Source: an uncultured Candidatus Saccharibacteria bacterium
GTDB taxonomy: Bacteria > Patescibacteriota > Minisyncoccia > 2-02-FULL-40-12 > GWA2-44-9
NCBI GenBank assembly: GCA_964653875.1
Contig: CAZZGH010000002.1
Coordinates: forward strand, 1 to 41,668
Direction: 5' to 3'
Length of the DNA: 41,668 bases
Shown: positions 12,975 to 38,849 of the stretch, in pieces
How positions within the stretch are numbered: the first letter of the stretch is position 1
How the letters are laid out: the number at the start of each line of letters is the position of its first letter
Notes under the pieces: generated by a model
The model's input: only the letters and a program-made list of their open reading frames with translations
The model's database searches: none
What the model was told of the DNA's origin: nothing
Translations under genes and position numbers: made by a program

Positions 12975-14042
12975 TTACTTCTTCAGCACATACAATTTGT
13001 TGTCCAAGCTATTGAGAATAACCACATAATCATCCAGACCGGAAAGAAAGAGTTCCGAAGTATTAATTTTGGAGGTTGGTGAAGATAGAAGTTTTTTGAT
13101 TCCATCAAGGCCGATTTCATATATCTCATCTCCAGAAGCTGATGACTGAGGTACTCCGCAAACCACACTTTTTCCATCTATGCCCCAGTCACATTTTGAT
13201 GCGGAGGTAGATATGTTAAGAGACATTTCCGATTCAGAAGAGACATCTTTATAGAATAAGCCAACCCCTGATTCCGTTTTTTGTGAAAACAGGAACCGAG
13301 AGCCGTCTTTAGACCACTTAACTTCAAGCCCATCCCTAGAGTCCAGTATTTTTTTAATCTCTCCGGCTTTAGATAAGCTATATAGTTCGGAACTGTCCGC
13401 GGTCTCTGTTTTGAAAGCCAAGAGGTTGTCTGATGGCCAATAAATTTCTGCATTTTCTAAGCGAGTTGGCAGTAATTTTTTGAAAGAACTGCCGTCAGGT
13501 TGTGAAATAAATATACCGCCGGAACGATCCTTCATTCCAAAGTAAGCTATTTGGCTTCCGTCCGGAGAAAACGCCAAAGATTTAATGTCAGTTCCGAGGT
13601 CGGCAGAAGCTTTTGTTTTAAAGTTAAAGTATTTGTAGTGATTCCCCTTCGGGTAGTAGAAAAGAGATACAACCTCTTTCTTTGATGGCGACCAGATTGT
13701 TTCTATTAGGTTAGATAAAGGAATTTCGGATATGGGTTTTTCTCTTAAGTCGTTTAAGGTAACCTCAAAAACTTTACCGGTATTCTTCTCGTAATAGAGA
13801 ACGCTGTCTTTTTCTTTGGATATAGCAGGTGATATGACTGTTCTCTGGCTTAAAAGCTTAAAAATACCAGAAGACCCTGCTTGTTGGTTGGGGTTGTTAT
13901 CGTTGAATTTATCCAGGATATTTCCAGTAGAGTTTGAGTTTTGACTTCTATGAAAATCTTTTTGGCTGATTAGATACCCCGACAAAAAAGCGGTAAAAGA
14001 TATAGATACGACAGTCAGGGTGATTAAAATTTTTTGATTCAT
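12975..14042 (-). CDS. N-terminally anchored TolB-like (PD40-type) beta-propeller protein
   Basis: TM segment ILITLTVVSISFTAFLSGYLI. Repeated motifs WSPSKKEVVSL, LAFSPDGSQIAYFG, IYWPSDNLLAF and VKWSKDGSRFLFS. Last gene of the T4SS-like operon. Confidence 0.6.
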   Translation of the reverse strand: MNQKILITLTVVSISFTAFLSGYLISQKDFHRSQNSNSTGNILDKFNDNNPNQQAGSSGIFKLLSQRTVISPAISKEKDSVLYYEKNTGKVFEVTLNDLREKPISEIPLSNLIETIWSPSKKEVVSLFYYPKGNHYKYFNFKTKASADLGTDIKSLAFSPDGSQIAYFGMKDRSGGIFISQPDGSSFKKLLPTRLENAEIYWPSDNLLAFKTETADSSELYSLSKAGEIKKILDSRDGLEVKWSKDGSRFLFSQKTESGVGLFYKDVSSESEMSLNISTSASKCDWGIDGKSVVCGVPQSSASGDEIYEIGLDGIKKLLSSPTSKINTSELFLSGLDDYVVILNSLDNKLYVLKK

Positions 14043-14043
14043 G

Positions 14044-14487
14044 TTATGTTCCTAATTCGGTTTGTTTATGTCCGGAGAGGCCAAGTTGGATGGGTAGCTC
14101 GTATCTTGATTTTACAAAAGACCAAATCAAAAACAAAGACCTGAATGGCAGAATATTTAGTATTGGAACTTTTTCACCAATTATTCCTACGATTATTCTT
14201 TTGAACTGCTTTCTCCCTCCTTTTGAAAGGCCAACAGACAGAAGAAGAATAGCATCAACGAAAAGACCAATTAGCCAGCCTATTGTTCCGATCGTTAGCA
14301 TGTCTATAAAGTCAGCTACGACACAAAGAAGAAGAAGAATAGCAAACATCATTGTGTCCATCTTTGCCGGTGTTTCGGGCTGATTTCCCTTCTCTCTTTC
14401 TTCTCTTTCTTGGTCGGCTTGATAGAGAGCCCTATCAGACTCAAGTTGTTCTTGATAGTTTTGTTGCTGGTTTTCGGGCATTGTCAT
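14044..14487 (-). CDS. Small membrane protein with an acidic N-terminal tail (unknown function)
   Basis: 147 aa. Hydrophilic QQNYQEQLESDRALYQADQEREEREK followed by 2-3 TM segments. 1-nt gap to the next gene. Confidence 0.55.
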   Translation of the reverse strand: MTMPENQQQNYQEQLESDRALYQADQEREEREKGNQPETPAKMDTMMFAILLLLCVVADFIDMLTIGTIGWLIGLFVDAILLLSVGLSKGGRKQFKRIIVGIIGEKVPILNILPFRSLFLIWSFVKSRYELPIQLGLSGHKQTELGT

Positions 14488-14504
14488 TAGTTGTTGGTTG
14501 TTGA

Positions 14505-16247
14505 TTACCCCCTAAGTTTCGCCCACTCTTCCTTGGCTTTCTCTATCTCAAGTATCTGGCGGGGGTCGGAGGTGATTATCTGGTCTTCGGCATAAGATGC
14601 GACAACGCGGATGCCGATGTGGTTTTGGCCGAGGAAAAACAATCCGAAACCTACCCGTGCTTCCAGCAGGTAATATTTTTCCGCATCGGTTAAGTTGAAC
14701 GTTGTTTTAACCACCTCGATGGATGATGGCGATTGTTTCATAAGAACCTGTATAGAAGAGTTGCTTAAAATTGTTTTTCCTTGAGGCGATGCCAGAAAAT
14801 CAGGGATATCTTGTGATATGGTGGTCAGACCAGCATAATATTTTCTGGCACGCTTCGCGATATTGGAGAGGAAGTTAGCGCCTAATTCGTATTTCATGAG
14901 CCACCACGCCTCATCAACCACAAGGATTCGCTGTTTGAGCGTTCTTCTGATGGTTACCCACATGAAATTTAAAATTAGGTACATGGCAATTGGCCTTAAC
15001 TCCTCCTCCATTTCTCTAATACTGAAGACTATCATTTGGTTATCTAGCGAAACATTTGTCGGCTTGTTCAAAAAGCCAGCAAAGGTTCCCTGGGTGTATT
15101 TCTTCAACCTGATTGCCATTGACTCTGCTCCAGTTAGGCCTTCTAATATGCTTTGAAGGTCAGAAAGCAAGGGCGGTGAAGATTTGGTAAAGTTGACTTC
15201 TGGAGTGATATCCTTGATGGCATAAGTTTGGATTAAAGCTTCATCTAGGATGGCTGTTTCTTCGGGGGTCAATTCTCCGAGTATGAGTCGTAAAAGGCCA
15301 GTCAGATCAAGAATATGAGATTTGAAAACATCGGCCGGAGATTCGTCTTCTTTTGGTGTTGGCAGATCGAAGGGATTAATATGCTGATCGGAATTGACTG
15401 AGATTTTTATCGACGAGCCACCGATAGTGTCCGAAAGGTACTTGTATTCATTTTCGGGATCAATAATTAAAACCTGGGTTCCAAACAAAAGACTTCGTAA
15501 TATCTCAAGTTTGACAGTATAACTTTTTCCGCCACCTGATTTGCCGAACACAACAGAATTATAATTTTCAAGTTTGAATCTATCGAAAAGTACCAAGGAA
15601 TTATTGTGTGTGTTTATGCCATAAAGCACTCCGGAATTTGAGGTTAGGTCAAAAGAAACAAATGGGAACAAAGAAGAAAGGGGCTCCGTATTTAAGGAAG
15701 TATGGACATTGAGTCGGTCATCGTTAGAAGGCAGAGTTGAATTAAAACCTTCGTTCATCCTGAAAACGGCGGGTTTTGAAAAAACCAGCTGATATTCCAA
15801 GAGGCCCTTTATTTTATTCTCGGTCTCATCCAGCTCTTTAATGTTGTTTTCGTAGATTGTAATGTAGACACCAAGTTCAAAGAATTTGTCTGTTCCCTGT
15901 TGAAGCTTGTCGCGAAGTACTTCTATGTCTTGAATGCCGGTTTCAAGTATTGGATCGCGGACCTTGCCTTTTGAGGATTCTTCCATCGCCTGTGACTGGA
16001 GTCGAGCTAGCTGATCTCTTAATTGTTTAAGAACTGTAGTCGTATTTTTGGGAAGAATAAAAATAGAAATATCAAAAACACGATCTAAGTTTATAACTGG
16101 TGAAAACCAATTAGTGTGAAGATATCGAGGGTAGGTGGCCAAAAATATCGTGCGGGCGTATTTATCCCCTATTTGAAAATAATTAGGTGAAACACTGAAA
16201 GCTGAAGGGGCGAATAGTTCGTCTATTTTTTTATTATTCTGGTCCAT
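14505..16247 (-). CDS. virB4: VirB4/TraC/PrgJ-family T4SS ATPase, C-terminal ATPase part
   Basis: Walker A FGKSGGGKSYTVK and Walker B RILVVDEAWWLM. The region YARTIFLATYPRYLHTNWF is typical of the VirB4 middle region. Confidence 0.8.
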   Translation of the reverse strand: MDQNNKKIDELFAPSAFSVSPNYFQIGDKYARTIFLATYPRYLHTNWFSPVINLDRVFDISIFILPKNTTTVLKQLRDQLARLQSQAMEESSKGKVRDPILETGIQDIEVLRDKLQQGTDKFFELGVYITIYENNIKELDETENKIKGLLEYQLVFSKPAVFRMNEGFNSTLPSNDDRLNVHTSLNTEPLSSLFPFVSFDLTSNSGVLYGINTHNNSLVLFDRFKLENYNSVVFGKSGGGKSYTVKLEILRSLLFGTQVLIIDPENEYKYLSDTIGGSSIKISVNSDQHINPFDLPTPKEDESPADVFKSHILDLTGLLRLILGELTPEETAILDEALIQTYAIKDITPEVNFTKSSPPLLSDLQSILEGLTGAESMAIRLKKYTQGTFAGFLNKPTNVSLDNQMIVFSIREMEEELRPIAMYLILNFMWVTIRRTLKQRILVVDEAWWLMKYELGANFLSNIAKRARKYYAGLTTISQDIPDFLASPQGKTILSNSSIQVLMKQSPSSIEVVKTTFNLTDAEKYYLLEARVGFGLFFLGQNHIGIRVVASYAEDQIITSDPRQILEIEKAKEEWAKLRG

Positions 16248-16872
16248 TTTCGGATGTTAGTTTGTTACCTGGGTTGTATAGCCCGTAGAAAAGATTCATT
16301 AGGTCGTTTCCTTCTAAAGTTTTCGCTTTAAGTCCCATTCCAATCAAGCCGTCAAAGATTAGTTCGGTTCTTTGGAGGAGTTGGCTTTTGTAAGTCTCCA
16401 GCTGTTCGGGCGTTAATTCCTTAACAACCGCCGATGGTTTAAATATGCTTTTTAAACTCTGTGTTATTCCGGATTTTGACGGTGCTTCAAAAACGTAAAA
16501 AGGAACGACAATATAAAATTTCTTAGACATGATGTTGGAAAGGTCTGAAAGCTCTTCGACGAATTTTGAGTATTCTATTGCCTGGATTTTCAAAAGCTCA
16601 TTGGTTAGGGCATTTGCAGATTCATTGATCAATTTGAGATACTCATCGATGTTTAGTTTTCTGGAATTTACAACGATCTGAAGCGGAAAATCTATTGAAT
16701 TAATAAAACGCTGGAAATTTTGGAGAATGGCCGTCTGTTCTCCTTCGGAACGGAGTTCAAAATTAATTGCCGAAACTTCAATCACAGCTCTCAAGGATCC
16801 GTTTTTTAGCAATACAATACTGTCTATTATGTTTGCTATCTCTACTAATTGTTTAGTTGATTTGATAGCCAT
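16234..16872 (-). CDS. VirB4/PrgJ-type N-terminal domain encoded as a separate ORF
   Basis: LLKNGSLRAVIEVSAINFELRSEGEQTAILQNFQRFINSIDFPLQIVVNSRKLNIDEYL matches the N-terminal pattern of Gram-positive VirB4 homologues. It overlaps the ATPase ORF by 14 nt in another frame. Confidence 0.65.
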   Translation of the reverse strand: MAIKSTKQLVEIANIIDSIVLLKNGSLRAVIEVSAINFELRSEGEQTAILQNFQRFINSIDFPLQIVVNSRKLNIDEYLKLINESANALTNELLKIQAIEYSKFVEELSDLSNIMSKKFYIVVPFYVFEAPSKSGITQSLKSIFKPSAVVKELTPEQLETYKSQLLQRTELIFDGLIGMGLKAKTLEGNDLMNLFYGLYNPGNKLTSENGPE

Positions 16873-16904
16873 TTTGAATGTTGAATGTGGATAGTAGAAT
16901 GTTG

Positions 16905-17225
16905 TTAAGAATTTTTACCACCTTCTACCCTCCACTCGCTACTTTCATTATTTTTCTTAAATATATATTTCTTGGGGTTCGTAAAATAAGAAAGCCCGTA
17001 GCTGGCGTAAACTATCAGCGGAACACCGTCTATTTTCAAAAAAGCCAAAGCAAGAAAAATCACAGCCACTGGTATTGCAAAAATGAAGAATAAAATTCCC
17101 CTAACTAAAGTAAAAAGCAGAAACACAAAAGCGGCTCCGCCCGCAATCCATAAAAACTGCTGGAGCGTAAACGGCCCTACTATTTTAGTCTCTGTCTCTA
17201 TGAATTGTGGCAATTGAAAACGCAT
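16905..17225 (-). CDS. PrgI/VirB3-like small T4SS membrane protein
   Basis: MRFQLPQFIETETKIVGPFTLQQFLWIAGGAAFVFLLF followed by a second TM. 106 aa. Immediately upstream of the VirB4 ORFs. Confidence 0.65.
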   Translation of the reverse strand: MRFQLPQFIETETKIVGPFTLQQFLWIAGGAAFVFLLFTLVRGILFFIFAIPVAVIFLALAFLKIDGVPLIVYASYGLSYFTNPKKYIFKKNNESSEWRVEGGKNS

Positions 17226-17338
17226 TTGTAACTTGCTGGCCTCTCCCGCCTAAACTATGGCGAAGTTTATTTTATAAACTAAGTATAGCAGATTTTTAGC
17301 CAAAAATGGCGTAAGTAGTCAACAGCCCGATTTTGTTA

Positions 17339-17344
17339 TATAAT
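17339..17344 (+). promoter_or_regulatory. -10 box TATAAT, 8 nt upstream of the mntA-like ATG
   Basis: Sequence reads ttgtTATAATccaattatATG. Confidence 0.4.
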
Positions 17345-17352
17345 CCAATTAT

Positions 17353-17658
17353 ATGAGAATTGAACACTACCCTCTCGGAAAATTAAAAAAAGACATTCTG
17401 GGTATTATAGGAAAACACTTGGATATTTTAGCGTATAAAGTGTTTTTTTTCGGTTCACGGGTAGTTGGTTCCGGTAACGAGCGGTCGGATATTGACGTCG
17501 GCATTGAAGGTCCGGGAGAGATTTCCTACGAAATTATGGCTAAAATTAAAGACGAAATTGACAACCTGCCCATTCTCTATAAAATTGAGATAGTGGATTT
17601 TGCCAAGGTCTCCCCGGATTTTTACAAAGTTGTTTCATTCCGGCGCGATTATTTATAA
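17353..17658 (+). CDS. mntA: MNT-type nucleotidyltransferase (MntA-like antitoxin)
   Basis: GSRVVGSGNERSDIDVGIEG (GS...SDIDV) minimal NTase motif. 101 aa. Confidence 0.8.
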   Translation: MRIEHYPLGKLKKDILGIIGKHLDILAYKVFFFGSRVVGSGNERSDIDVGIEGPGEISYEIMAKIKDEIDNLPILYKIEIVDFAKVSPDFYKVVSFRRDYL

Positions 17659-17668
17659 TTTTTTTATT

Positions 17669-18058
17669 ATGTCAAAACTTGAAGCTGTTTTAAATCAATT
17701 TGAACAAGCCCTGCAAAGATTGGATGAGGTTTTGAAAGAACCCAAGAACTCTATTATTCGCGATTCGGCTATCCAGCGGTTTGAGTTTAGTTTGGATTTA
17801 TCATGGAAGTCCGTTAAAGCGTATCTTGAGGACAAGAAAGGAATAGCCTGCTCTTCGCCGAAGGATTGTTTCCGTGAAGCATATCGGCAGGGTCTGGTTG
17901 AATACAACGATGCTTGGATTAAGTATGTGGATATGAGAAATGAAACCGCCCACACCTATAAAGAAGAAATTGCCGACAAAATATACGCGGAACTGCCCAA
18001 GGCCTTAGCAGACTTTATGAATTTATTGAAGGCCTTAAGGCAGCCAACAGATGCTTGA
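17669..18058 (+). CDS. hepT: HEPN-domain protein, HI0074 nucleotidyltransferase-substrate-binding family (HepT-like toxin)
   Basis: DSAIQRFEFSLDLSWKSVKAYL and the Rx4H motif RNETAHTY. The internal ATG at 17669 was chosen (129 aa). Confidence 0.8.
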   Translation: MSKLEAVLNQFEQALQRLDEVLKEPKNSIIRDSAIQRFEFSLDLSWKSVKAYLEDKKGIACSSPKDCFREAYRQGLVEYNDAWIKYVDMRNETAHTYKEEIADKIYAELPKALADFMNLLKALRQPTDA

Positions 18059-18077
18059 TATAGCTTTTAATCCATAG

Positions 18078-18083
18078 TATAGT
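18078..18083 (+). promoter_or_regulatory. -10-like TATAGT, 6 nt upstream of the hicB ATG
   Basis: Sequence reads cataGTATAGTgaaaatATG. Confidence 0.3.
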
Positions 18084-18089
18084 GAAAAT

Positions 18090-18335
18090 ATGCTTAGCGA
18101 ATATATAGAAAAACAATTTAAAAAAGCAAAATTTAAGGTCTTGAAGGACGGTTCTTATTTTGGTTCTGTTTCTAGTTTCCCTGGAGTTTGGGCTAATAGA
18201 AAAACCTTAGCAACGTGTAAAAAGGAGTTACGTGAGGTTTTGGAGGAGTCTCTGATTTTAAAAGTTAGGAACAAAGAAAGCATTCCCGGTTTTGACATAA
18301 AATTTGATCGCCGCTCGATGTTTAAACATGCCTAA
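18090..18335 (+). CDS. hicB: HicB-like antitoxin
   Basis: YFGSVSSFPGVWANRKTLATCKKELREVLEESL is a typical HicB N-terminal fold signature. It overlaps hicA by 8 nt (ATGCCTAA). Confidence 0.7.
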   Translation: MLSEYIEKQFKKAKFKVLKDGSYFGSVSSFPGVWANRKTLATCKKELREVLEESLILKVRNKESIPGFDIKFDRRSMFKHA

Positions 18336-18540
18336 GAGTATTTCTTGGCGCAAGTTAGTCCAAAATTTCAAGAAATTAAGTTTTGACGGCCCATACTCTG
18401 GCGGCCGTCATTTATTTATGATTAAAGGAAAACTCAAGGTTCACATACCTAATCCCCACAGCAAAGATATTTCTGGCTTTTTAATAGCCGAAATTTTACG
18501 TCAAGCCGGCCTCTCAACTAAGGAGTGGAATAGTCTGTAA
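18328..18540 (+). CDS. hicA: HicA-like mRNA interferase toxin
   Basis: KLVQNFKKLSFDGPYSGGRHLFMIKG..VHIPNPHSKDISGFLIAEILRQAGLS. 70 aa from the internal ATG. Confidence 0.7.
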   Translation: MPKSISWRKLVQNFKKLSFDGPYSGGRHLFMIKGKLKVHIPNPHSKDISGFLIAEILRQAGLSTKEWNSL

Positions 18541-18585
18541 TATCTTGGTTTCCGTCTCAATAAATTGTGGTAGTTGAAAACGCAT
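18514..18585 (-). pseudogene. Truncated duplicate of the prgI 5' end (first 15 codons, then an unrelated tail)
   Basis: The minus strand encodes MRFQLPQFIETETKI, then LQTIPLLS and a stop. The first 15 aa are identical to PrgI at 17181-17225. Its ATG overlaps the upstream gene's stop codon as TAATG. Confidence 0.75.
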
Positions 18586-20840
18586 TATTGTTTGTTTCTT
18601 AAGTCTACGGTGTTATTGGGATTGGTCGGTGGATTTGGCGGAGTTGGAGATCCGAAACCAACTTGTCCTCTGGGATAGTTTCCGCTGCCTCGGCCGGTTC
18701 TTGGAGGGCCTGCCGGTAGCGTTCCTTCTGCTGGCCCACCGCTGGTCCCACCTAAACCACCTCCACGAATTATTGCTTCGCCAGTTGCTTTCCCTGTTAT
18801 TTCTGCTAATTCTTTTGCAACTCTTTCCTTTTTTGCTTTTATTTTTTCCGCATCAAATTCATCTGGAGATATCTTTTGCCAAGACTCCAGTTGTTGCTTT
18901 GTCCCCTTTGCCATCATGGCTTCAATTTTCTGCTGGTTTAAAGACCCCATTACTAAATTTTTTCTCGCTTCGTATCCAGTATCTTCTGGACCCGTGGAAA
19001 CACCCACGTAATCTTTTAAAGCTCTGGTGGCTTCCAGTAAAGCGTCTGGGTTCATGCGGCTGATTGCTTCTTCCATGGCAACCCGCATCCCTTCAGGAGT
19101 ATTTTCTATTGCTTTTCCAGCTTTCATTAACAGTTGATTTTGTAGTCCAACCTTGGTGGATAATTCAAAATTATGTTTTTCGATCTTTTTGAGAAGATCT
19201 TTCTGTTCACCTTCAAGACCGAATAGGCCCAGGACTTTATTAAGATTTTGTTCGGCACCCTCTTCGGTATTAGTTAAGTAGCGGTCGCCTTTATCGGCCA
19301 TGACATTTGTTATTTTTTGTTTTGTCTCTATGTCGGGCACTCTACCAAGCCAGGTCTCTCTTTCTTGCGCTGACATCTTGTCGTAATCAAGACTTCTGGC
19401 AAATTGCTTAGCTCCAAGAGGTGAAACCTCTTCATAAAGTTCATATGTTTTTCTACGGCCTGCCTCGGATAAAAGCTTTCTATCTTTCAGTATTTCTGCC
19501 GCTGCCAATCTTTCGTCTTTTCTACCCCTAGACATCAAAGCTTCTAGTTGAGTGGGATCTGTAACGGTTTTAAACTTCTCCTTGTTGGCAGCAATATCTT
19601 TGGCTAATTGTTTGTCGGCAGCTCCTCGAACTCCAAATCTTTCTGCCCAGCCGGATGTTTGTCTTTCTAATCCGGCTTTACCACCATAAAGTTTTCCGAA
19701 TCTCCCCGGCAAACCCTCCTGTTTAACCTGTTCTAATCTTTGTTGAGCCGCCCCTCCCATTGCTGTTAACCCCAATCTTCTCGCTGCAACGCCTCGTGAC
19801 CACGTTGCGATCCCCACCACTCCGGTTCCAGAAAACATGGAGGCCTTCATCGCCACTATTGTTCCACCGATTAAAAATATTCCACTTAAAACGTAGAAGA
19901 ATAAAATTTGAAGAGTAAACGAACTTCCGCCGAGGGGCTGATTAGCTGTTTGTGTGGCTATCTTAGAAAGTACTGCGCCCTGGTTTTGTAAAAAATAGAG
20001 CCCAAAATAAAGAAAGAAAAGAAAAATTGGCAGAAACATATTCCAGCCGATAAATGTGCCCCACCATTTTTTGAATGTTCCTTGTCCAGAAGGAAAAATA
20101 TTCAGAATCCAGGCAATTGGAGAAACAATAAGTAAAGCCCATAAAATAGGAATCCTTATTAAGGCAAACAAAAATGCCGTCAACAAACTAAACGCGAACG
20201 TAAAAAGGAGAACGACGGAGAAAATGAGGGTTATTATTGTTCCGAAAACTGCGTTATCTAGGGCATTGGCAAAAGCATTGGCAGAAATTTGGTCGGGATT
20301 AAGGGGAATGTTGTTTACCAGCCCTTGACCCAATCGGCCAGACATGTCTCCAATAGAAGTAAGGAAGGTATTACTTAGGATCTGTGTTCCCTGGATAACC
20401 ATTACTCCGAGAACCAAACTGAAATTTATCAGGAGCGCTGTTAGGAGAAATTTTCCAAACAATGCTCTGGCGTTGTATCTTGCCGCTCCGGGAAGAATAT
20501 CAAAAATAGTTGCAAAAGCCATCACAATGAGGGCAACAATAAAAAACATATTAGCGAAGTCTCTCATAATTTTCCAACTCTCATCTATAACCGCGAGTCC
20601 TCCGTTAGGATAAACTGGTATATTGATTACTTGATAAAGACCAGCGGCGAGTAAAGAAATGACTTGCCCGACAGCTGAAAACATTACAAAAAGAAGCCAA
20701 CCAAATACACTTGAAATTGCATTTGTGGCAATAGATTCTATCCCAAAAGCATTGACCAGATGTGTCGGCAGAAAAACTAAAACAATCGCAAAAAGAATTG
20801 CGAGACAGAGTTTTTTATTTTTTATTTTAAATCCGTCCAT
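18585..20840 (-). CDS. VirB6/TrbL-like polytopic membrane protein with a long helical, Gly/Pro-tailed C-terminal extension
   Basis: About 9 predicted TM segments in the first ~375 aa. These are followed by ~370 hydrophilic residues ending GGGLGGTSGGPAEGTLPAGPPRTGRGSGNYPRGQVGFGSPTPPNPPTNP. Its position next to prgI/virB4 supports the call. Confidence 0.55.
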   Translation of the reverse strand: MDGFKIKNKKLCLAILFAIVLVFLPTHLVNAFGIESIATNAISSVFGWLLFVMFSAVGQVISLLAAGLYQVINIPVYPNGGLAVIDESWKIMRDFANMFFIVALIVMAFATIFDILPGAARYNARALFGKFLLTALLINFSLVLGVMVIQGTQILSNTFLTSIGDMSGRLGQGLVNNIPLNPDQISANAFANALDNAVFGTIITLIFSVVLLFTFAFSLLTAFLFALIRIPILWALLIVSPIAWILNIFPSGQGTFKKWWGTFIGWNMFLPIFLFFLYFGLYFLQNQGAVLSKIATQTANQPLGGSSFTLQILFFYVLSGIFLIGGTIVAMKASMFSGTGVVGIATWSRGVAARRLGLTAMGGAAQQRLEQVKQEGLPGRFGKLYGGKAGLERQTSGWAERFGVRGAADKQLAKDIAANKEKFKTVTDPTQLEALMSRGRKDERLAAAEILKDRKLLSEAGRRKTYELYEEVSPLGAKQFARSLDYDKMSAQERETWLGRVPDIETKQKITNVMADKGDRYLTNTEEGAEQNLNKVLGLFGLEGEQKDLLKKIEKHNFELSTKVGLQNQLLMKAGKAIENTPEGMRVAMEEAISRMNPDALLEATRALKDYVGVSTGPEDTGYEARKNLVMGSLNQQKIEAMMAKGTKQQLESWQKISPDEFDAEKIKAKKERVAKELAEITGKATGEAIIRGGGLGGTSGGPAEGTLPAGPPRTGRGSGNYPRGQVGFGSPTPPNPPTNPNNTVDLRNKQ

Positions 20841-20863
20841 GTGTCTAGTATTTTCAACTGTTT

Positions 20864-22309
20864 CTATTGAGTGCAGCTTAAGGGGATATCGCCGGTGAAT
20901 TGAGTTGTCATTACGTTTCTTAACGGTGTACTTCCTGCTCCCGAATCAGTAATAGCGTCGTAACGTTCAATTGTAGTATCGCCTGACTTCCAAACCGCAA
21001 TAAGATCTCCCGTGTTTGGGTTGTCATTCCCGTTCTTTACATTAGTTGTTGCATTAAATCCTGTTTCTCTAAGTTTTGTGGATATAAGATTTAAAATTGT
21101 AAATCCATTTGCAGTTGTATTGAGAGCGTCAGCGATTCCTCCCGAGTTGGTAGCCAGGACAGCATCAGTGGCAGTTCGGAGTGCCCCTGCATAATCAGGG
21201 TTTCCGCCAGAATTTCTGCATACTCCCGTGCCTCCTCCTCCCGGTGGCGCGGAAGGAGGAGAAGAACTTGCTTGTGGCACATTATAACCCCAAGCTCTAG
21301 CACAGTTGGTTTGGCAAGTAATGTTATCGGCCGCCGGACAAGAATTAACACACGCAAGATATTTGTCGGAACTTGAAGTGTCGGTTTTGGGAGCGGTTGC
21401 GTAATCATTTGAGGGATTGGATGTAGCTAAATTTATTATTCTGTTTGTAATTGCGGAGCCGATAGCAATAATTACTTCACTTAATTCATCTGATGAAACA
21501 AGCCACCCCAAATCATTGTCGATAGTGCTGGCCGCCGATTTGCCTAAAAGATCTCCCGGGGTAAAAATCTGACCCATAAAGACACATTGTGCATTGGGCC
21601 CCTTCCCTGTACAAGAGTTGCGTACAGATGTATAGCCGCTACCAGCCATTGCTTCATAAACATCACTTGATTGTGCTAATGATCTTTGTCTGGCTGACTC
21701 ATCGAGAGATCCGAACAGAAGACCGTAATAATTATTTTGTGGTTCAAGCATTCTTGACCAAGCATTCCACCCGCCATTTCCAGAGAAGTCATTTTGATAA
21801 TTAGTCATACTAAAATTGGAGGGCATGGTGCAATTTGATCGTAGAGCAAAAGAATCAAAGTTGCCTGTTCTTAGATTTTGTCCTTGAGAGGGTACCACGG
21901 TGTTAGCCGCAAACAGTTCCTTGATACTTCCAGAAGTATAGCTGCATAAATTCGTTGATGCTAATATGCTTCTGAAGACATTCTCGCCTCTATATTGGGC
22001 ATTGGTTTGAAAGTTACTCCAATTTTGGACGAAAGCTGGCCCGCCGTCTCTTCCGCCAGTTTGAATTTTATTAATTATTCCGGAAACAGCAATATTTAAT
22101 AAACTTCTGGCAATAGTTCTGGCTATGGCATCAAGAACGTATTCTTTTACTGTCAGAGATGTGGCAGAACCAGCGGTTGTAGCATTAAAAGCCGCATTGA
22201 TAGGATCATTAACTACTGCTGCTCCAGCATTTATTTTGGGGGCATTAACAGCCAAACCCCAGGCGAACCCGATGATGGTGGTAATAACGATTAATTTTTT
22301 GAAAATCAT
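20864..22309 (-). CDS. Secreted Cys-rich hypothetical protein, two domains joined by a Pro/Gly linker
   Basis: Signal-like N-terminus MIFKKLIVITTIIGFAWGLAVNA. About 12 Cys residues. Linker SSSPPSAPPGGGGTG. No family recognised. Confidence 0.6.
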   Translation of the reverse strand: MIFKKLIVITTIIGFAWGLAVNAPKINAGAAVVNDPINAAFNATTAGSATSLTVKEYVLDAIARTIARSLLNIAVSGIINKIQTGGRDGGPAFVQNWSNFQTNAQYRGENVFRSILASTNLCSYTSGSIKELFAANTVVPSQGQNLRTGNFDSFALRSNCTMPSNFSMTNYQNDFSGNGGWNAWSRMLEPQNNYYGLLFGSLDESARQRSLAQSSDVYEAMAGSGYTSVRNSCTGKGPNAQCVFMGQIFTPGDLLGKSAASTIDNDLGWLVSSDELSEVIIAIGSAITNRIINLATSNPSNDYATAPKTDTSSSDKYLACVNSCPAADNITCQTNCARAWGYNVPQASSSPPSAPPGGGGTGVCRNSGGNPDYAGALRTATDAVLATNSGGIADALNTTANGFTILNLISTKLRETGFNATTNVKNGNDNPNTGDLIAVWKSGDTTIERYDAITDSGAGSTPLRNVMTTQFTGDIPLSCTQ

Positions 22310-23202
22310 TTGTAAAGCTGGTTTAAAAGGTTATAGAAATTATCATCCAAAGCTAGGTTGTTTTTAGAAATATTGGAATTGACTTGCTTTAGTAGGTTTT
22401 TTATATCACCATCAACATTTTTAATGTCTTCAAGCGCGATATACGCCCTGTATGGATCTGATTGGTAAAAACCTAGAGATTCATAATCAACCATTGACCG
22501 GTTGATTATGTCTAATAGACCATAATGTATTTCCTGCCAGTCCTTGGGAATGGACATTTTAACCAAAGCTTGGTACACATCTTTGAAATTGTTTTTGAAC
22601 TCCGAAAGAAGAATTATGTATTGGTCGCCGGTGGCTTTAAGGCCGATATTATCACGAGGAGCAAAAAGAAGTTGTTTTATTATTTGCGATACGTCGTTTA
22701 GGTAAGACTCTTGATTTTCTTTTGAATTGCTTATTAAAGTTAGAGTAGGTTTTTTAGAAGATTGGGATTGGTAGAAATCGTCAACAATTACCGCAGAAAT
22801 ATTACCAATTGATGAGCCGAAATTTTTATTTTCGGGTTTTAAATCTTCAGAATAAAGACCGCCGACGACTAATTTTTGTATTTTTTCTGTTAAATTTGTC
22901 GAGTTGGATAAAAGGTCATTCGGACCGGGTTTTAGAGGATCGTGTCCCGATGCTACCTCTTCTCCGTCTTTAAAACCGTCGCCATCGGTGTCGGGATTTT
23001 GAAAGTCGGTATTCCAGTAGGACTCCTCTCTGTTTGTCAGGCCGTCATGGTCAGCATCGGTGTCGGGAACAGGTAAGGGATTTTCTATATCGATGGCCGC
23101 AAAGGGGGCAGATTTACCGTCTAAGGAATTGAAAACACTGTAAACCGAAAACAGGGCGGCTAACGCCAGAAAACCGAAAAATATTTTAATTTTGTTTGGC
23201 AT
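22306..23202 (-). CDS. Secreted protein with thrombospondin type-3-like calcium-binding repeats
   Basis: Signal-like N-terminus. DTDADHDGLTNREE and NPDTDGDGFKDGEEVASGHDP (DxDxDG repeats). 4-nt overlap with the next gene. Confidence 0.6.
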   Translation of the reverse strand: MPNKIKIFFGFLALAALFSVYSVFNSLDGKSAPFAAIDIENPLPVPDTDADHDGLTNREESYWNTDFQNPDTDGDGFKDGEEVASGHDPLKPGPNDLLSNSTNLTEKIQKLVVGGLYSEDLKPENKNFGSSIGNISAVIVDDFYQSQSSKKPTLTLISNSKENQESYLNDVSQIIKQLLFAPRDNIGLKATGDQYIILLSEFKNNFKDVYQALVKMSIPKDWQEIHYGLLDIINRSMVDYESLGFYQSDPYRAYIALEDIKNVDGDIKNLLKQVNSNISKNNLALDDNFYNLLNQLYK

Positions 23203-24670
23203 TTCGTGATTTAGTTATACCTAACCCAAAAATTGCCAAAGACAACAATAAAATTGGCAAATCTCCTAACTTATTATACCATGTCTGTTTTTTATTGGGC
23301 ACAACATCAGCTGTTAATATCTGGTAGCCGCTGGATTCGGTCGATTTTACGATATTTCCATTGCCATCCACAACATAAGAACGGCCAAAATTTGAGGCCA
23401 AAACGGCATATTTCCCGCTTTCAGCCGCCCGGAACCTCAACATAGACAAGAATTGGGACTCTATTACGCGGCTACCTCTAAATGCGCCTAAGTTTTGGAG
23501 AAATATTAGTAAGCCGTATTGATCTTGAGATGAGATGGTGGGAGATACCACATCTGAACACACAAGGATCTTTATCTGAAAATTATTATAGTTCAATAAG
23601 TCGGAGTGAGAACCTGCTTTTAGTTCGGAACTTTCAGCAGTGATTGCGCCCTTCCCTAAGATAAAAAGAAGCAACTTTAAAACATAAGGAATATATTCTC
23701 CAGCCGGCGTTAATAATTGCTTGTCATAAAAACCGGAAATTCCGTTTTTAGAGTTAACAAACAAAGTTCTTGATTTATAGCTTTCCTCATCTGGCAAGAT
23801 GTTGTTGTCTATGATGGTGAACTCTTTATCGGAAAGTTTTTTAAAATAATTTTGTGCAGAACTATTGTCTAAAAAAGTAAGCAAGGTTTTTGAAAAATTA
23901 GAACTTTCAGGGAAAACGACGATTCCCCCGTCAACTGCGCTTGCCGCCTCTTTTAGCATTTCTAATTTTTTAGTGTAATTGTCCAATATCTCATTTGCGG
24001 AGAATTTAAACCTTGTTTCGTCTCTTGTTTGTATTAAGGAAATTTTTATTGTGTCTGGCACTTCCTTGTTATTTTTTAAGGAAAGTCCGATTGTTATAAA
24101 AAACATCAAAACCATTAACCCAAGATTAAATAAAACCGCCTTCGAATTAATCTTGTACTTGCCGGCGACAAAAAAGAAAATAGTACCCACTATCAACATC
24201 AGTACAAAATTTATCCCATAAATTCCCCAAACAGAAGAAATTCTTAAAATAAAAGGCCAAGAAACCAAAGAATAAGCAGGACTTCCCAGTGTCCAGTGCG
24301 GGCCAAATAAATTCCCGCTACCTGTCCATAGAAATCCAAATCCCCAAGACCTCAAGTATTCGGCAATAACAAATACGCCGGCGGCTATTAAGGGGGTTGG
24401 TAAAAATTTATTTTCTTTACTTAATCTGTCGATAAAAAAAGAAAATAAGCCCCAAAAGAGAGCTGTTCCAGCTACGCTTAAAGTAAAAACAAATAAAATC
24501 AGCAAAAAAGAATAAAGTCCGCTTTCAACTCCAAACGTGTTAAGAGGATACAAAGACCAAAACCAGCGGAAAGTATATGAAAAGTAAACGAGACCAACAA
24601 TAAAACCCGGCCAGAAACCAGAGGGGCGCAGACGAACTATTTTTCCATAAATTTTGATAATTCTGTCCAT
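23186..24670 (-). CDS. lnt: Apolipoprotein N-acyltransferase (Lnt)-like protein: polytopic N-terminus plus CN-hydrolase domain
   Basis: Multi-TM N-terminal half. CN-hydrolase triad context VVFPES, YDKQLLTPAGEYIPY and KILVCSD. Confidence 0.7.
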   Translation of the reverse strand: MDRIIKIYGKIVRLRPSGFWPGFIVGLVYFSYTFRWFWSLYPLNTFGVESGLYSFLLILFVFTLSVAGTALFWGLFSFFIDRLSKENKFLPTPLIAAGVFVIAEYLRSWGFGFLWTGSGNLFGPHWTLGSPAYSLVSWPFILRISSVWGIYGINFVLMLIVGTIFFFVAGKYKINSKAVLFNLGLMVLMFFITIGLSLKNNKEVPDTIKISLIQTRDETRFKFSANEILDNYTKKLEMLKEAASAVDGGIVVFPESSNFSKTLLTFLDNSSAQNYFKKLSDKEFTIIDNNILPDEESYKSRTLFVNSKNGISGFYDKQLLTPAGEYIPYVLKLLLFILGKGAITAESSELKAGSHSDLLNYNNFQIKILVCSDVVSPTISSQDQYGLLIFLQNLGAFRGSRVIESQFLSMLRFRAAESGKYAVLASNFGRSYVVDGNGNIVKSTESSGYQILTADVVPNKKQTWYNKLGDLPILLLSLAIFGLGITKSRNAKQN

Positions 24671-25530
24671 TGGCTTAATGATAAGTTTTCTGCTCGGACA
24701 TCGTGTCTAATATCCAGTTCTTTGAATATCTTGAACAGGTCATCCTTAATCATACCAAAATTTTTGGCCAGGTTGTTGATCAGTTGTTTTCTTTTGCCGG
24801 AAAAGCCGGCTTTTATCAGCTTAAAAAATATTTCATGATTGGTTAATGTTAGCTGATCGTGGGGTGCCTGCCCTGTACCAAACCCGCCCCCCTTCTTAAT
24901 GGTGGTCAGCGGAATAGTTTGGTGCGGGGTTAGTTTTATTATCGCCGAATCCACCTTCGGCGTCGGCCGAAAACTTCCTCGGGAGACATAACATATTATT
25001 TTTACATCCGAATAAAGTTGAACTGATAAAGCAAGAAGATTCATGTTCGGTGGTTTGGCGACAATTCTTTGAGCAACTTCTTTTTGAACAGTTAGGATAA
25101 TTAATTCTGGCCTCGGCCACTCCTCGAAGATAGTTTTCAGAAGGTGTGAAGTTATGTAATATGGGATATTTGCCACAACCTTATACAAGGTTAAACCTTG
25201 TATAACAAGGTTTAACCTTGGTATTTTCATTAAACTTTCAATTGTAAAATTTAATATATCCCCCTCTATCACCTCAACGTTTGTGTTTTTAAATTTTTCT
25301 TTTAACTCACCTATGAGTCTGTGGTCTTTTTCTACAGCTATAACTCGTCCGGCTTGTCCTGAGTTAGTCGAACGGACTTTTTCGGAAAGTAGTTTCGTTA
25401 GGTTTCCCGTTCCGGGACCGATTTCTAAAACAGTATCGTTCGGACTTAATTCTGCCGCGGACACTATTTTTTCAAGTACGCCCGCGTTTATCAGAAAATT
25501 CTGGCCGAGAGATTTTTTGGGATATGGCAT
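24637..25530 (-). CDS. rsmA: 16S rRNA (adenine1518/1519-N6)-dimethyltransferase RsmA/KsgA
   Basis: KKSLGQNFL, VLEIGPGTGNLT and ANIPYYITS. 297 aa with apparent insertions. Confidence 0.9.
   Translation of the reverse strand: MPYPKKSLGQNFLINAGVLEKIVSAAELSPNDTVLEIGPGTGNLTKLLSEKVRSTNSGQAGRVIAVEKDHRLIGELKEKFKNTNVEVIEGDILNFTIESLMKIPRLNLVIQGLTLYKVVANIPYYITSHLLKTIFEEWPRPELIILTVQKEVAQRIVAKPPNMNLLALSVQLYSDVKIICYVSRGSFRPTPKVDSAIIKLTPHQTIPLTTIKKGGGFGTGQAPHDQLTLTNHEIFFKLIKAGFSGKRKQLINNLAKNFGMIKDDLFKIFKELDIRHDVRAENLSLSQWTELSKFMEK
25177..25220. repeat. Nested/tandem palindromes inside the rsmA coding sequence
   Basis: Alternating arms aacctt/aaggtt occur five times. 25181-25205 ttatacaaggtt-a-aaccttgtataa is a perfect palindrome. 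25206-25220 caaggtt-t-aaccttg follows. Confidence 0.85.
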
Positions 25531-25588: not shown

Positions 25589-27553
25589 TCAATATTCTAT
25601 GATTTCATCGTCGGAATAGCTCCCTTCAAATAAGGGTTGAATTTTTAGGATATCTTGGGGCATTTCATAAATAAATCGTGACGGCAGGTTTGTTTGAGTT
25701 GAGCCAAAAATATTTCTATATTTTGCATGAGTTAAAATCAGCCGATCTTTTGCCCGGGTAATGGCGACATAGCAAAGTCGGCGTTCCTCCTCTAATTCCA
25801 GAGGAGCTAAGGTGGCTCGGCTATGAGGAAAGAGACCTTCTTCCATGCCGGCGATAAAGACAACCGGGAACTCCAGTCCTTTTGAAGAATGAATTGTCAT
25901 TAAAGTTATCCGGTCAGCGGAATTTTTCATTTTGTCCGTTTCCTGCAAGAGGGCGATTTCTTCTAAGAATTTTTCTATCCCTTCTTCTCCCGGCAGTGTG
26001 TCATATTTTTTGGAAACGGTCAGGAGTTCTTTTATGTTCTCCATCCGATCGTCTGTGTCGACGTAGAGGTCTTTTTTTATAGCTAAATTTTTTAGATATT
26101 CTTCGTAGTTAGTTTCTTTGACGATATGTTTTATGACAGATGTTAGACTCCTGTGTTTTTTTCTTTCCGACAGATCGACCAAAAGGTTTTTAAATTCGAT
26201 TAAAGATTTAGCTTGTTTTGTGTTGCCTTTTTCTTTAGCCAGTATTCCGATTGATTGAATCAGGTCGGGTGCGCCAATTGACGTAATTTTATTGAATGTC
26301 GTTTCGCCGATTCCCCTTGTCGGAACATTGTAGATTCTTTCAAGACTAATCAAATCAGTCGGATTAACCATGAATCTTAAATAAGAAAGAATGTCTTTTA
26401 TTTCTTTTCTCTCATAAAATCTTAGTCCGCCCACAATTTGATAGGGAAACCCTCTGGTTATCAGCTCTTCTTCAATTGCCCTTGATTGAGCGTGGGTTCG
26501 ATATAAAATCGTGAAATCTTGAATTTTATGCCCCGATTCCAAAAGAGAATCAATTTTGTCGGTTATAAATTCGGCTTCGGCCCTCTCGTTCAAAGTTTCC
26601 CTGACATGTATCTTCTCCCCTTTCGTATTTTCCGTCCACAATTCTTTGGGGACTTGAGTTTGGTTGTTTGAAATTATGTTTTGAGCTGCGGCGAGAATAT
26701 TTTTTGTAGAGCGGTAATTTTGTTCAAGAAAAATAACTTTGGCGTCGGGATAATCTTTCTGGAAATTCAGAATATTTCTGATATCGGCATCGCGGAAAGC
26801 GTAAATTGATTGGGCGTCATCACCTATTGCGAAGATGTTTCTGCTTTTGGCCGAGAGGAGATTGACCAGAGTGTATTGGTCGTGGCTGGTATCCTGATAC
26901 TCGTCTACAAGAATATATTTCCAGAAACTCTGATATTTTTCCAGAATTTCGGGGTTTTGTTTGAAAATTTTAACGGTTAGAACAATTAAATCATCAAAGT
27001 CTAGGCCGCTCATCCTTTTTAGTTCTGTCTGGTAGTTGTTGTAAACCCTGGAAACAATTTTTGTAAAAAATTCTGTGGGGTTATAGTTTTCAGGGAAGAT
27101 TAGATTGGTCTTAAGCTTAGAAATTTTGTTTAATATCAAATGCGGATTATATCTCTTAGGATCAATTTCTAGATTTACCATTACTTTTTTGATTAAGCTT
27201 ACCTGATCATTGGTGTCAAAAATTGAGAAGTTTGATTTGTAACCAAGGAGAGAAATTTCTTTTCTCAATATTCTCAAACATATTGAATGAAAAGTGCCGG
27301 TCATGGGTTGAGCCGATTTAGTCTGAAGTAACTTATCAATCCTTTCTTTCATTTCGTTTGATGCTTTGTTTGTAAAAGTGATGGCCAAGATACTACCGGG
27401 TCTTATTCCTTGAGAAATTAAGTAAGCCACCCGATGAGTTAAGCAGCGAGTTTTACCTGAACCCGGACCGGAAATAACCAAAACAGGACCGTCAATTGCT
27501 TTGACGGCCTCTATTTGTTTGTCGTTTAGGTTTTTGAATATTTCGTCGTTCAT
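25589..27553 (-). CDS. pcrA: UvrD/PcrA-family ATP-dependent DNA helicase
   Basis: VISGPGSGKT, ILVDEYQDT, TIHSSKGLEF and VAITRAKDRL. ATG 27553 is preferred over GTG 27568. Confidence 0.9.
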   Translation of the reverse strand: MNDEIFKNLNDKQIEAVKAIDGPVLVISGPGSGKTRCLTHRVAYLISQGIRPGSILAITFTNKASNEMKERIDKLLQTKSAQPMTGTFHSICLRILRKEISLLGYKSNFSIFDTNDQVSLIKKVMVNLEIDPKRYNPHLILNKISKLKTNLIFPENYNPTEFFTKIVSRVYNNYQTELKRMSGLDFDDLIVLTVKIFKQNPEILEKYQSFWKYILVDEYQDTSHDQYTLVNLLSAKSRNIFAIGDDAQSIYAFRDADIRNILNFQKDYPDAKVIFLEQNYRSTKNILAAAQNIISNNQTQVPKELWTENTKGEKIHVRETLNERAEAEFITDKIDSLLESGHKIQDFTILYRTHAQSRAIEEELITRGFPYQIVGGLRFYERKEIKDILSYLRFMVNPTDLISLERIYNVPTRGIGETTFNKITSIGAPDLIQSIGILAKEKGNTKQAKSLIEFKNLLVDLSERKKHRSLTSVIKHIVKETNYEEYLKNLAIKKDLYVDTDDRMENIKELLTVSKKYDTLPGEEGIEKFLEEIALLQETDKMKNSADRITLMTIHSSKGLEFPVVFIAGMEEGLFPHSRATLAPLELEEERRLCYVAITRAKDRLILTHAKYRNIFGSTQTNLPSRFIYEMPQDILKIQPLFEGSYSDDEIIEY

Positions 27554-27657
27554 GAATTTTGTGGTCACAAGTATTTTTCCTGACGGAAAAATCTCGCGAC
27601 CCCGGCTCGCGGTTTTTGCCTTTCGCTATCGCTCAAACAAAAACATCGCTCCGCCTT

Positions 27658-27705
27658 CCACAAGAGCTAAAAATCTCAAGCAGTTGAGGTTTTAAGCTCT
27701 TGTGG
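27658..27705 (-). terminator. Long hairpin immediately after tRNA-Ala copy 1
   Basis: ccacaagagct ... agctcttgtgg, with inner stem ctcaa-gcag-ttgag. It overlaps the last 3 nt of the tRNA. Confidence 0.5.
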
Positions 27706-27773
27706 ACCCGGGGAGAATCGAACTCCCGCCTCGACAATGCGAATGTTGCGTTATGCCACTTAACTACGGGCTC
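27703..27773 (-). tRNA. tRNA-Ala(CGC), copy 1, no encoded CCA, with two A-C mismatches
   Basis: Hand-folded cloverleaf. Acceptor gagcccg/cgggtcc with G3:U70. D stem gtta/taac. Anticodon loop ttCGCat. T arm gggag-ttcgatt-ctccc. A2:C71 mismatch plus one A-C in the anticodon stem. Confidence 0.75.
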
Positions 27774-28154: not shown

Positions 28155-28190
28155 AGGTTTTTTATCAGTTAATCCTCGGTAAATCAAATT

Positions 28191-38806: not shown

Positions 38807-38816
38807 GCTCTTATTA

Positions 38817-38849
38817 TATCAAAGAATCGCTATTAGCGATTCTTTGATA
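38817..38849 (-). terminator. Stem-loop after pilA (attenuator or stabiliser between the major pilin gene and pilD)
   Basis: tatcaaagaatcgct-att-agcgattctttgata, a 15-bp stem. No strong U-tract. Confidence 0.45.

Follow-up and report, generated by a model that had tools for sequence, protein, structure and literature searches.

A probable vertically inherited type IV secretion system beside dnaA in a Yanofskybacteria relative, and its conserved candidate accessory genes

Introduction

A type IV secretion system (T4SS) is one of a handful of envelope machines that are thought to lie behind the dependence of Patescibacteria, or Candidate Phyla Radiation (CPR) bacteria, on a host. Here we describe a T4SS gene cluster on a stretch of 41,668 nucleotides (contig CAZZGH010000002.1 of assembly GCA_964653875.1); this whole 41.7-kb stretch is called the window below, and statements on the presence or absence of conjugation genes refer to it. 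The closest described systems come from a survey of 3,035 genomes, Yanofskybacteria included, which recognized a monophyletic Patescibacteria VirB4 clade nested in MPF_FATA (Quinonero-Coronel et al. 2025, Microbial Genomics, PMC12102498). In these genomes TrsD is the most common virB4 partner, PrgI/VirB3 and VirB6 are encoded near virB4, and virB4 lies near dnaA, dnaN, KsgA and RnpA, notably in Paceibacteria. Relaxases are nearly absent across the phylum, VirD4 homologues are found in most Patescibacteria genomes, usually far from virB4, and about half of the assemblies in the survey have pilins close to virB4 (PMC12102498). A 2025 T4SS review restates these points.

In Saccharibacteria, an origin-proximal T4SS (SEML1_0006-0019) resembles Gram-positive conjugative systems (Wang et al. 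2023, Cell, PMC10633639). It has pilins, has no recognisable coupling protein or relaxase, and is essential for epibiotic growth. Its genes run in the order VirB6-like, PrgI, the hypothetical SEML1_0009 at the TrsD position, VirB4 and wall-active proteins, and recF (SEML1_0003) places them beside the origin (PMC10633639). In culture, Yanofskybacteria are attached to methanogenic archaea (Methanothrix), and their secretion-system genes are highly expressed (PMC9600506, PMC10936435).

We find that the cluster in the window is very probably a chromosomal, vertically inherited Patescibacteria T4SS in a Paceibacteria/Yanofskybacteria arrangement. The system itself, its lack of a relaxase and its dnaA-proximal position are already published (PMC10633639, PMC12102498), and the window adds nothing on the existence, distribution or non-conjugative nature of such systems. 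What is new here is a conserved list of candidates for the missing outer parts in Paceibacteria.

Results

Core components of the T4SS

An open reading frame (ORF) scan reproduced all nine co-directional minus-strand genes that the original prediction, made from the DNA letters alone, had placed in this cluster. At its center is a VirB4-family ATPase of 580 aa (14505-16247), in which the predicted Walker A (GKSGGGKSY) and Walker B (LVVDEAW) motifs are found. This protein matches NCBIfam NF045971 (conju_CD1110) at 2.4e-104 (350.1 bits, cutoff 325); its best NCBIfam family is hence of the conjugative CD1110 type, with MPF_FATA affinity, and it also matches Pfam P-loop_TraG, AAA_10 and CagE_TrbE_VirB. 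The NF045971 match spans model positions 183-733, the first ~180 canonical residues being lacking.

The adjoining gene (16234-16872, 212 aa) overlaps virB4 by 14 nt. Its product matches NCBIfam TrsD (NF041427, 1.9e-6) as well as the N-terminal parts of VirB4 models (NF045975 positions 102-233 and NF045971 positions 9-118), which means that VirB4 is encoded in two pieces, and an ortholog carries Pfam TraC-like PF26593. The TrsD-like gene is a separate ORF of 203-258 aa in 70 of 71 related loci; a separate TrsD-like piece is thus the normal state of the family, in agreement with the 2025 survey. The earlier view of this gene as a 'VirB4-N' had to be abandoned: it is not a frameshifted VirB4 and should be annotated as TrsD-like rather than as a VirB4 fragment. 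We also rejected an alternative genetic code or a frameshift as the source of the split VirB4 and of the 17.2-18.6 kb gap, because the gap holds genuine plus-strand toxin-antitoxin (TA) genes and TrsD is a separate ORF in relatives; straight translation through this prgI-virB6 gap meets many stops. TrsD and VirB4 appear to be fused in one 715-aa ORF in a single locus among the 71, from metagenome-assembled genome (MAG) JBBTTJ010000025 (L025); this may be a genuine re-fusion, or else an artefact of the assembly or of a frameshift.

Next in the cluster is a PrgI/VirB3-like membrane protein (16905-17225, 106 aa), which matches Pfam PF12666 at 1.4e-9 (38.8 bits, cutoff 27) and has a hydrophobic hairpin at residues 19-75. 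The remaining core protein, of 751 aa (18585-20840), was identified through its orthologs and its predicted structure. Pfam PF04610 TrbL is matched by 8 of 50 orthologs (best 1.7e-5) and, at 31.8 bits against a cutoff of 25.9, by the homolog P0236 (E=8e-12 to the 751-aa protein), while PF19590 TrbL_3 is among the precomputed annotations of orthologs. A profile of 50 orthologs, searched against all Protein Data Bank (PDB) sequences at E<=10, gave a single match, to chain 7o3v_F, the TrwI/VirB6 protein of R388. Similarly, an AlphaFold2 model of residues 1-380 (pLDDT 77, pTM 0.68) retrieved TrwI chains at Foldseek ranks 1-4 and 6, with probabilities of 0.87-0.99, and of 0.97-0.99 for the top matches. 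Given the agreement of ortholog Pfam, profile and predicted-structure routes, we accept this protein as a VirB6 homolog. It differs from R388 TrwI (PDB 7O3V, 8RT9), to which it is about 12% identical, in having ~400 extra hydrophilic C-terminal residues, which end in ...NNTVDLRNKQ; the gene is therefore best annotated as an extended VirB6/TrbL. Of the polytopic VirB6-like protein with roughly 9 transmembrane segments originally described, the family stands and the number becomes about 8 hydrophobic segments, within residues 1-336. Profile and structure searches thus upheld all three of the core assignments first made, namely VirB4, PrgI/VirB3-like and VirB6-like.

As predicted, no VirD4, relaxase or integrase was found among the cluster ORFs or the scanned flanking ORFs (at least about 100 aa) of the window. 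In Pfam scans, the ORFs outside the cluster were housekeeping, type IV pilus or unassigned only. No flanking att-like repeats were found and the nearest tRNAs lie more than 3 kb beyond the cluster.

Conservation of the locus among relatives

A VirB4 search with one genome per GTDB species gave 306 relatives, the best 80 of which were analyzed as loci (numbered with the prefix L). Nearly all of these 80 are labelled as CPR/Patescibacteria MAGs, with VirB4 identities of 56-93%. The closest, at 93%, is a Candidatus Yanofskybacteria, and Giovannonibacteria, Azambacteria and others appear at 56-60%; by these sequence comparisons, the organism is a relative of Yanofskybacteria within Paceibacteria.

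Every window protein was then compared with the related loci by tblastn. Upstream genes were counted in the 48 loci whose sequence extends 7 kb or more upstream of virB4, and downstream genes in the 66 loci that extend 4 kb or more downstream. Orthologs of PrgI were present in 48/48 loci, of TrsD in 47/48 and of the VirB6-like protein in 46/48. Two further proteins encoded upstream, a thrombospondin type 3 (TSP3)-repeat protein and a Cys-rich protein, were almost as constant (44/48 and 41/48, respectively), and TSP3, Cys-rich, VirB6, PrgI and TrsD genes occurred in the exact order of the window in 38 of the 48 loci, at VirB4 identities of 59-93%. Downstream of virB4, a propeller protein was found in 60 of 66 loci and dnaA in 58. 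The recurrent order is pcrA-rsmA-TSP3-Cys-rich-VirB6-PrgI-TrsD-VirB4-membrane protein-propeller, followed by jag/yidC/rnpA and dnaA. Recurrence of this gene set and order in relatives, to which the original prediction had looked for support, is seen across Paceibacteria species, down to 59% VirB4 identity.

An independent look-up of the locus of a 33%-identical Cys-rich homolog gave the same order with precomputed Pfam labels. It starts with pcrA, rsmA, TSP3_bac (299 aa), the Cys-rich protein (632 aa) and TrbL_3 (669 aa), continues with a 164-aa protein, PrgI (102 aa), TraC-like/TrsD (215 aa) and VirB4 (584 aa), and ends with a 177-aa protein and the propeller (359 aa); jag, yidC, yidD, rnpA and rpmH follow on the opposite strand, and then dnaA. 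A fixed chromosomal position across such divergence points to vertical inheritance rather than to an integrative and conjugative element (ICE) or other mobile island. Core families, the relationship to Yanofskybacteria, a fixed locus in dozens of species and the lack of conjugation genes in the window together bear out the earlier idea of a domesticated, Gram-positive-type chromosomal T4SS that is not conjugative, in an ultrasmall and probably host-attached bacterium.

Comparison with described systems

With the Patescibacteria-clade T4SS (PMC12102498) the window shares a VirB4 of MPF_FATA affinity, a separate TrsD-like gene, adjoining PrgI/VirB3 and VirB6/TrbL genes, the lack of a relaxase or type IV coupling protein (T4CP) nearby, and a location beside dnaA, dnaN, rsmA (KsgA) and rnpA. 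It differs in having no VirB2-like pilin in 41.7 kb, pilins being frequent, not universal, in the clade, and in carrying a TA insertion and an Lnt gene. Moreover, the TSP3, Cys-rich, small-membrane and TolB-like proteins described below, and proteins with an N-x-V-D-L-R tail, are not discussed in that paper. Its text contains none of the words PD40, TolB, thrombospondin and apolipoprotein, and PD40, TSP3, PF18884, PF07676 and LNT are missing from the available part of its supplements; the Paceibacteria accessory set therefore appears undescribed.

The T4SS of the saccharibacterium Southlakia epibionticum is likewise origin-proximal, has a monoderm-type subunit set with no relaxase or coupling protein in the cluster, and has the order VirB6-like ... 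PrgI - TrsD-like - VirB4 - downstream envelope proteins. However, its lysozyme/peptidase genes downstream of virB4, its NTF2-like (VirB8-like) protein, its second VirB6-like protein (it has two) and its six PF18895 pilins were not found in the window. Conversely, no TSP3, Cys-rich or propeller genes are reported for Southlakia, the only one of the two systems in which essentiality has been shown.

The window also resembles the conjugative MPF_FATA systems (pCF10 Prg/Pcf, pGO1 Trs and C. difficile CTn2 CD1110), with a VirB4 above the CD1110 cutoff, a PrgI family member, a TrsD-like protein as in pGO1, a VirB6/PrgH-class protein and no outer-membrane core. In contrast to these, it has no relaxase, T4CP (PcfC/VirD4), VirB1-like protein (PrgK/TrsG), VirB8-like protein (PrgL) or adhesin (PrgB), and its system is chromosomal and vertically inherited instead of being carried on a mobile element. 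The window thus lacks what would define a conjugative-element T4SS, having no relaxase, VirD4/TcpA-type coupling protein, integrase or att site in its 41.7 kb.

Exported and membrane proteins of the cluster

Three proteins of the cluster, the TSP3, Cys-rich and propeller proteins, each begin with a single hydrophobic segment and are therefore exported or anchored. The first (22306-23202, 298 aa) was correctly described as a thrombospondin-type-3-repeat secreted protein; it may be anchored or secreted, and matches Pfam TSP3_bac at 5.3e-9, above the cutoff. The D/G residues of its calcium-binding repeats are invariant across 38 orthologs. The PDB match of its profile, to a biofilm surface protein, does not extend beyond the repeats, and its C-terminal domain (~200 aa) had no match.

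The second (20864-22309, 481 aa) is the Cys-rich secreted protein of the original description, with a signal-like segment at residues 1-24 and 10 cysteines, 4 of which are invariant. It belongs to a large unannotated family, with 3,698 clusters at 50% identity for E<=1e-3 and 1,917 for E<=1e-10. It has no Pfam, NCBIfam or PDB sequence match, the last also with the family profile, and among the 136 homologs listed by a word-indexed search none is functionally named and two have any Pfam domain. An AlphaFold2 model (pLDDT 81) shows two well-ordered domains; the whole multi-domain model, the only form searched, had no Foldseek match at E<=0.001 in PDB or BFVD, and matched no lysozyme or NTF2 fold. 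A role as a VirB1-like hydrolase or known adhesin was rejected, the best Foldseek match (PcsB, E=0.23) not being significant.

The third is the propeller protein (12975-14042, 355 aa), encoded by the last gene of the cluster. Its hydrophobic segment, the only one, lies at residues 4-25; together with a TolB-profile match, this N-terminal membrane segment fits the anchored TolB-like propeller first proposed. The matches to Pfam PD40 and TIGR02800 TolB are weak, the latter reaching 33.8 bits against a cutoff of 343 and covering propeller blades only. A profile of 40 orthologs retrieved TolB chains from the PDB at 9e-18, again in the propeller regions only, and two cysteines are invariant. The similarity thus falls short of a full TolB identity, and no tolA, tolQ, tolR or pal was found in the window.

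Between virB4 and the propeller gene lies a small membrane protein of 147 aa (14044-14487), a positional family downstream of virB4. It had been described as having an acidic tail; the acidic region is in fact its N-terminal 45 residues (11 D/E vs 5 K/R), not its C-terminus. Hydrophobic segments at residues 39-90 and 107-125 would make 2-3 hydrophobic helices. The protein has no Pfam or NCBIfam match, and its 67 homologs, all unnamed, stay near the Yanofskybacteria level. In relatives, its position is taken by a short (130-195 aa) or a long (210-260 aa) membrane protein. We rejected the possibility that it is a VirB2-like pilin (E=3.1 against a PF18895-type hidden Markov model (HMM), no Pfam match).

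Distant Paceibacteria (L061-L079) have different genes after virB4 (e.g. L061 11786-13644, L067 11735-13518), one for an Ig-like secreted protein of ~330 aa and one for a T4SS pilin that is extended at its C-terminus by a Cys-rich region; these pilins were confirmed as PF18895 T4SS_pilin. The lineage of the window has the 147-aa membrane protein where L061-L079 have the Ig-like/pilin genes, and no pilin.

The ninth gene of the cluster encodes Lnt (23186-24670, 494 aa). Its identity as an Lnt-like acyltransferase is sound, with 134.1 bits against the TIGR00546 cutoff of 132.9, Pfam LNT_N and CN_hydrolase matches, and candidate catalytic E/K/C residues in the motifs FPE(253), KQLLTP(317) and CSD(371). 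Its listing as an accessory gene could not be maintained: Lnt is at the locus in only 13 of 48 related loci, and is therefore a neighbour and not an accessory part. A functional partnership was rejected on the same count (missing in 35/48 loci), and also since no lipobox cysteine was found in the N-terminal segments of the three exported cluster proteins. Lnt is probably a co-directional but variable neighbour, not to be counted within the system. We note the presence of a full-length Lnt in a presumed monoderm CPR bacterium.

An insertion between prgI and virB6

The junctions originally listed are all present, whether gaps (14042/14044, 14487/14505, 16872/16905 and 20840/20864) or overlaps (16234-16247, 22306-22309 and 23186-23202), and within each half of the cluster the genes are joined by 4-17 nt overlaps or 1-32 nt gaps. 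While the nine genes are indeed co-directional, their packing is not uniformly tight, as had been thought: prgI and virB6 are separated by 1,359 nt. This gap holds a plus-strand cassette (17353-18540), not part of the machine, of two TA pairs: an MNT nucleotidyltransferase (17353-17658, Pfam Polbeta/NTP_transf_2) with a HEPN/HI0074 subunit (17600-18058, TIGR01987 HI0074, 1.2e-28), and a HicB-like/UPF0150 antitoxin (18090-18335, PF21748 UPF0150, 2.5e-20) with a HicA toxin (18304-18540, PF07927 HicA). A tblastn search with MNT and HEPN, but not HicB/HicA, found neither of the two in any of the 80 related loci. The earlier notion of an operon running on from housekeeping genes survives in so far as pcrA and rsmA are directly upstream; its continuity does not, since it is split by the cassette. 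Promoter and terminator counts within the cluster are at chance level and thus carry no information on operon structure.

On either side of the cassette lies one copy of an imperfect direct repeat of 65 nt (17162-17226 and 18522-18586, 75% identical). The upstream copy contains a minus-strand stub of 23 codons (18514-18585, seen in the ORF list and the sequence), whose first 15 residues are the start of PrgI and whose ATG shares nucleotides with the VirB6-like stop codon (TAATG). Over these 15 codons, stub and prgI differ at eight nucleotides, all synonymous, suggesting that the copies may have diverged under selection and are not a simple target-site duplication. The sequences would fit, for example, recombination with a diverged allele.

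Between VirB6 and prgI, most relatives encode a conserved soluble protein that measures 150-420 aa and belongs to no Pfam family (e.g. L033 8327-8851, L005 8436-8951 and L081 13925-14419). Its C-terminus reads N-x-[VI]-[VI]-[DN]-L-R, followed by 2-10 residues to the stop. The N-x-V-D-L-R motif is found with synonymous codon variation in 30 of 66 loci, and is therefore constrained at the protein level. The gene for this motif-tail protein, present upstream of prgI in most relatives, is absent from the window, where the C-terminus of VirB6 (18585-18630) holds the motif (...NNTVDLRNKQ). The motif also stands at the C-terminus of 5 of the 52 VirB6-like orthologs examined in relatives (L007, L049, L013, L028 and L039). 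In this copy, we propose, the TA cassette has inserted between virB6 and prgI, and the motif-tail gene has been reduced to its N-x-V-D-L-R tail, now fused to VirB6.

Chromosomal surroundings

On one side the cluster is flanked by dnaN, dnaA, rnpA, yidD, yidC and jag. The predicted distance of about 2.5 kb to an oriC block is correct for dnaA (9032-10411), which is 2.5 kb away from the end of the cluster; no position was obtained for oriC itself, and the 16 DnaA boxes found in the window, against 10.9 expected, are within chance. The other flank carries rsmA (24637-25530, beyond Lnt), pcrA (25589-27568, beyond rsmA), tRNAs, the CCA-adding enzyme, gatCA and ligA. The cluster, with a GC content of 0.36-0.44, matches its flanks and shows no compositional anomaly.

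The rsmA gene contains a perfect palindrome with a 16-bp stem (25186-25220, CAAGGTTAAACCTTG TATAA CAAGGTTTAACCTTG), which is in frame and encodes part of ...PRLNLVIQGLTLYK.... At 297 aa, the rsmA product of the window is longer than that of L081 (262 aa), pointing to a small insertion in frame. Further on, two different tRNA-Ala(CGC) genes (27702-28264) lie 420 nt apart, with an encoded CCA on only one. Between them, overlapping the second, is an ORF with a cREC_REC domain (27774-28250), and after the second comes an HNH-repeat ORF (28268-29152). The duplicated tRNA-Ala(CGC) was considered as an att-like repeat and rejected, as the two genes differ in sequence. Type IV pilus genes are present at both ends of the window (175-1839 and 36151-41557), encoding a PilB-like ATPase, a second T2SSE ATPase, PilC/T2SSF, a prepilin peptidase and four pilins with N-methyl motifs; the T4SS is thus within about 20 kb of a pilus locus.

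Discussion

Our data place the cluster, very probably, among the vertically inherited Patescibacteria T4SS. From established T4SS biology, the VirB6/TrbL-like protein, the VirB3-like PrgI and the VirB4 ATPase would form a translocon in the cytoplasmic membrane, with the TrsD-like protein supplying the N-terminal domain of VirB4 as a separate gene product and ATP hydrolysis by VirB4 powering assembly and/or substrate passage. Conserved linkage and topology suggest that the TSP3, Cys-rich and propeller proteins may form or decorate an extracytoplasmic part, joined by the small membrane protein, and the four could take the place of the VirB1, VirB8 and adhesin/pilin parts that other monoderm systems have. 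The machine is most likely not a conjugation apparatus and, by analogy with the Saccharibacteria system, most likely serves host-cell interaction through protein export or macromolecule exchange. In view of the attachment of Yanofskybacteria to Methanothrix, an archaeal target is plausible.

We tentatively go a step further, in a proposal that we regard as possible rather than probable. The TSP3, Cys-rich, small acidic-headed membrane, propeller and cytoplasmic motif-tail proteins would be structural parts of a pilus-less Paceibacteria T4SS, the exported ones replacing VirB1, VirB8, adhesins and pilins as a wall-spanning, host-contacting module, and the N-x-[VI]-[VI]-D-L-R motif would act as a docking peptide for the VirB4/TrsD/PrgI complex.

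Several points weigh against these interpretations. The 751-aa protein has no direct Pfam match, even at E<=10, and its TrwI matches are individually weak (profile E=0.0017; Foldseek E=0.02-0.06, TM-score 0.23-0.41). In the window, searches brought up neither a VirB1-like hydrolase nor a VirB8-like protein nor a VirB2-like pilin: Pfam and NCBIfam gave no VirB1-like or VirB8-like match in any cluster protein, and a PF18895-type pilin HMM, built from the pilins of the distant loci, found nothing in the window or in 10 close loci; the envelope-spanning part of the machine is therefore one that we infer entirely. Its function is extrapolated from another class, the Saccharimonadia, and would hold here by analogy. 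Finally, this copy is interrupted and has lost a conserved gene upstream of prgI, and hence may be impaired.

What ties the accessory proteins to the T4SS is conserved adjacency and start/stop overlaps, a link that we infer from synteny; a conserved block near the origin could also hold them as envelope genes with no relation to the system. We consider it possible, although we doubt it, that they and Lnt are ordinary envelope genes that happen to lie beside four core genes in a rarely rearranged region. None of them is similar in sequence or structure to a known T4SS component, the housekeeping genes pcrA, rsmA, jag, yidC, rnpA and dnaA are equally syntenic, and Lnt is dispensable at its position. 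However, in most relatives as well as in the window the TSP3, Cys-rich and VirB6 genes overlap, or are spaced, by 4-25 nt, and the membrane-protein and propeller genes directly follow virB4. Distant loci carry other exported proteins and PF18895 T4SS pilins at the accessory positions, which therefore behave as a variable extracellular module.

A machine working in the opposite direction appears unlikely to us. It would be an importer, a DNA or nucleotide uptake device like archaeal Ced, feeding a bacterium unable to make nucleotides. VirB4 has weak matches to CedB and CedD (5.3e-6 and 7.7e-5), the window has neither T4CP nor relaxase, and in class ABY1 the T4SS is linked to comF, recG and radA (PMC12102498). 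However, the CedB score (NF041017) is 25 bits against a cutoff of 700, which does not support membership of the Ced family (CedA, CedA1 and CedA2 were not searched), and the best VirB4 family is the conjugative CD1110 type. Furthermore, the cluster contains no competence genes, and in Saccharibacteria the essentiality of the T4SS can be separated from ComEC-dependent transformation (PMC12857230).

The interruption of the cluster raises the question of decay. If the TA insertion had uncoupled prgI-virB4 from virB6, with loss of the gene upstream of prgI, this copy might be non-functional, an outcome suggested by the 1.36-kb opposite-strand insertion with its prgI stub and by the absence of the N-x-V-D-L-R-tail gene that most relatives have. 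We think this quite unlikely, given that all nine ORFs are intact and of orthologous lengths, that prgI is full-length with its own upstream region, and that the motif has been kept in frame on VirB6, as in five other genomes. It is highly improbable that the cluster is the remnant of an ICE that has its relaxase, coupling protein and integrase outside the window or lost them recently: VirB4 is closest to ICE/plasmid-type MPF_FATA ATPases and only 41.7 kb of the genome is visible, but dozens of species have these genes between rsmA and jag/dnaA, composition is normal, neither integrase nor flanking repeats nor tRNAs within 3 kb were found, and relaxases are rare across the phylum (PMC12102498).

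Returning to the inherited T4SS that we favor, the novelty that remains lies in its unannotated conserved partners, its pilus-less arrangement and its short conserved C-terminal motif, a possible interaction peptide. If the pilus-less reading with its five partners is true, then, since Yanofskybacteria attach to methanogenic archaea, this may be a bacterial T4SS adapted to an archaeal envelope.

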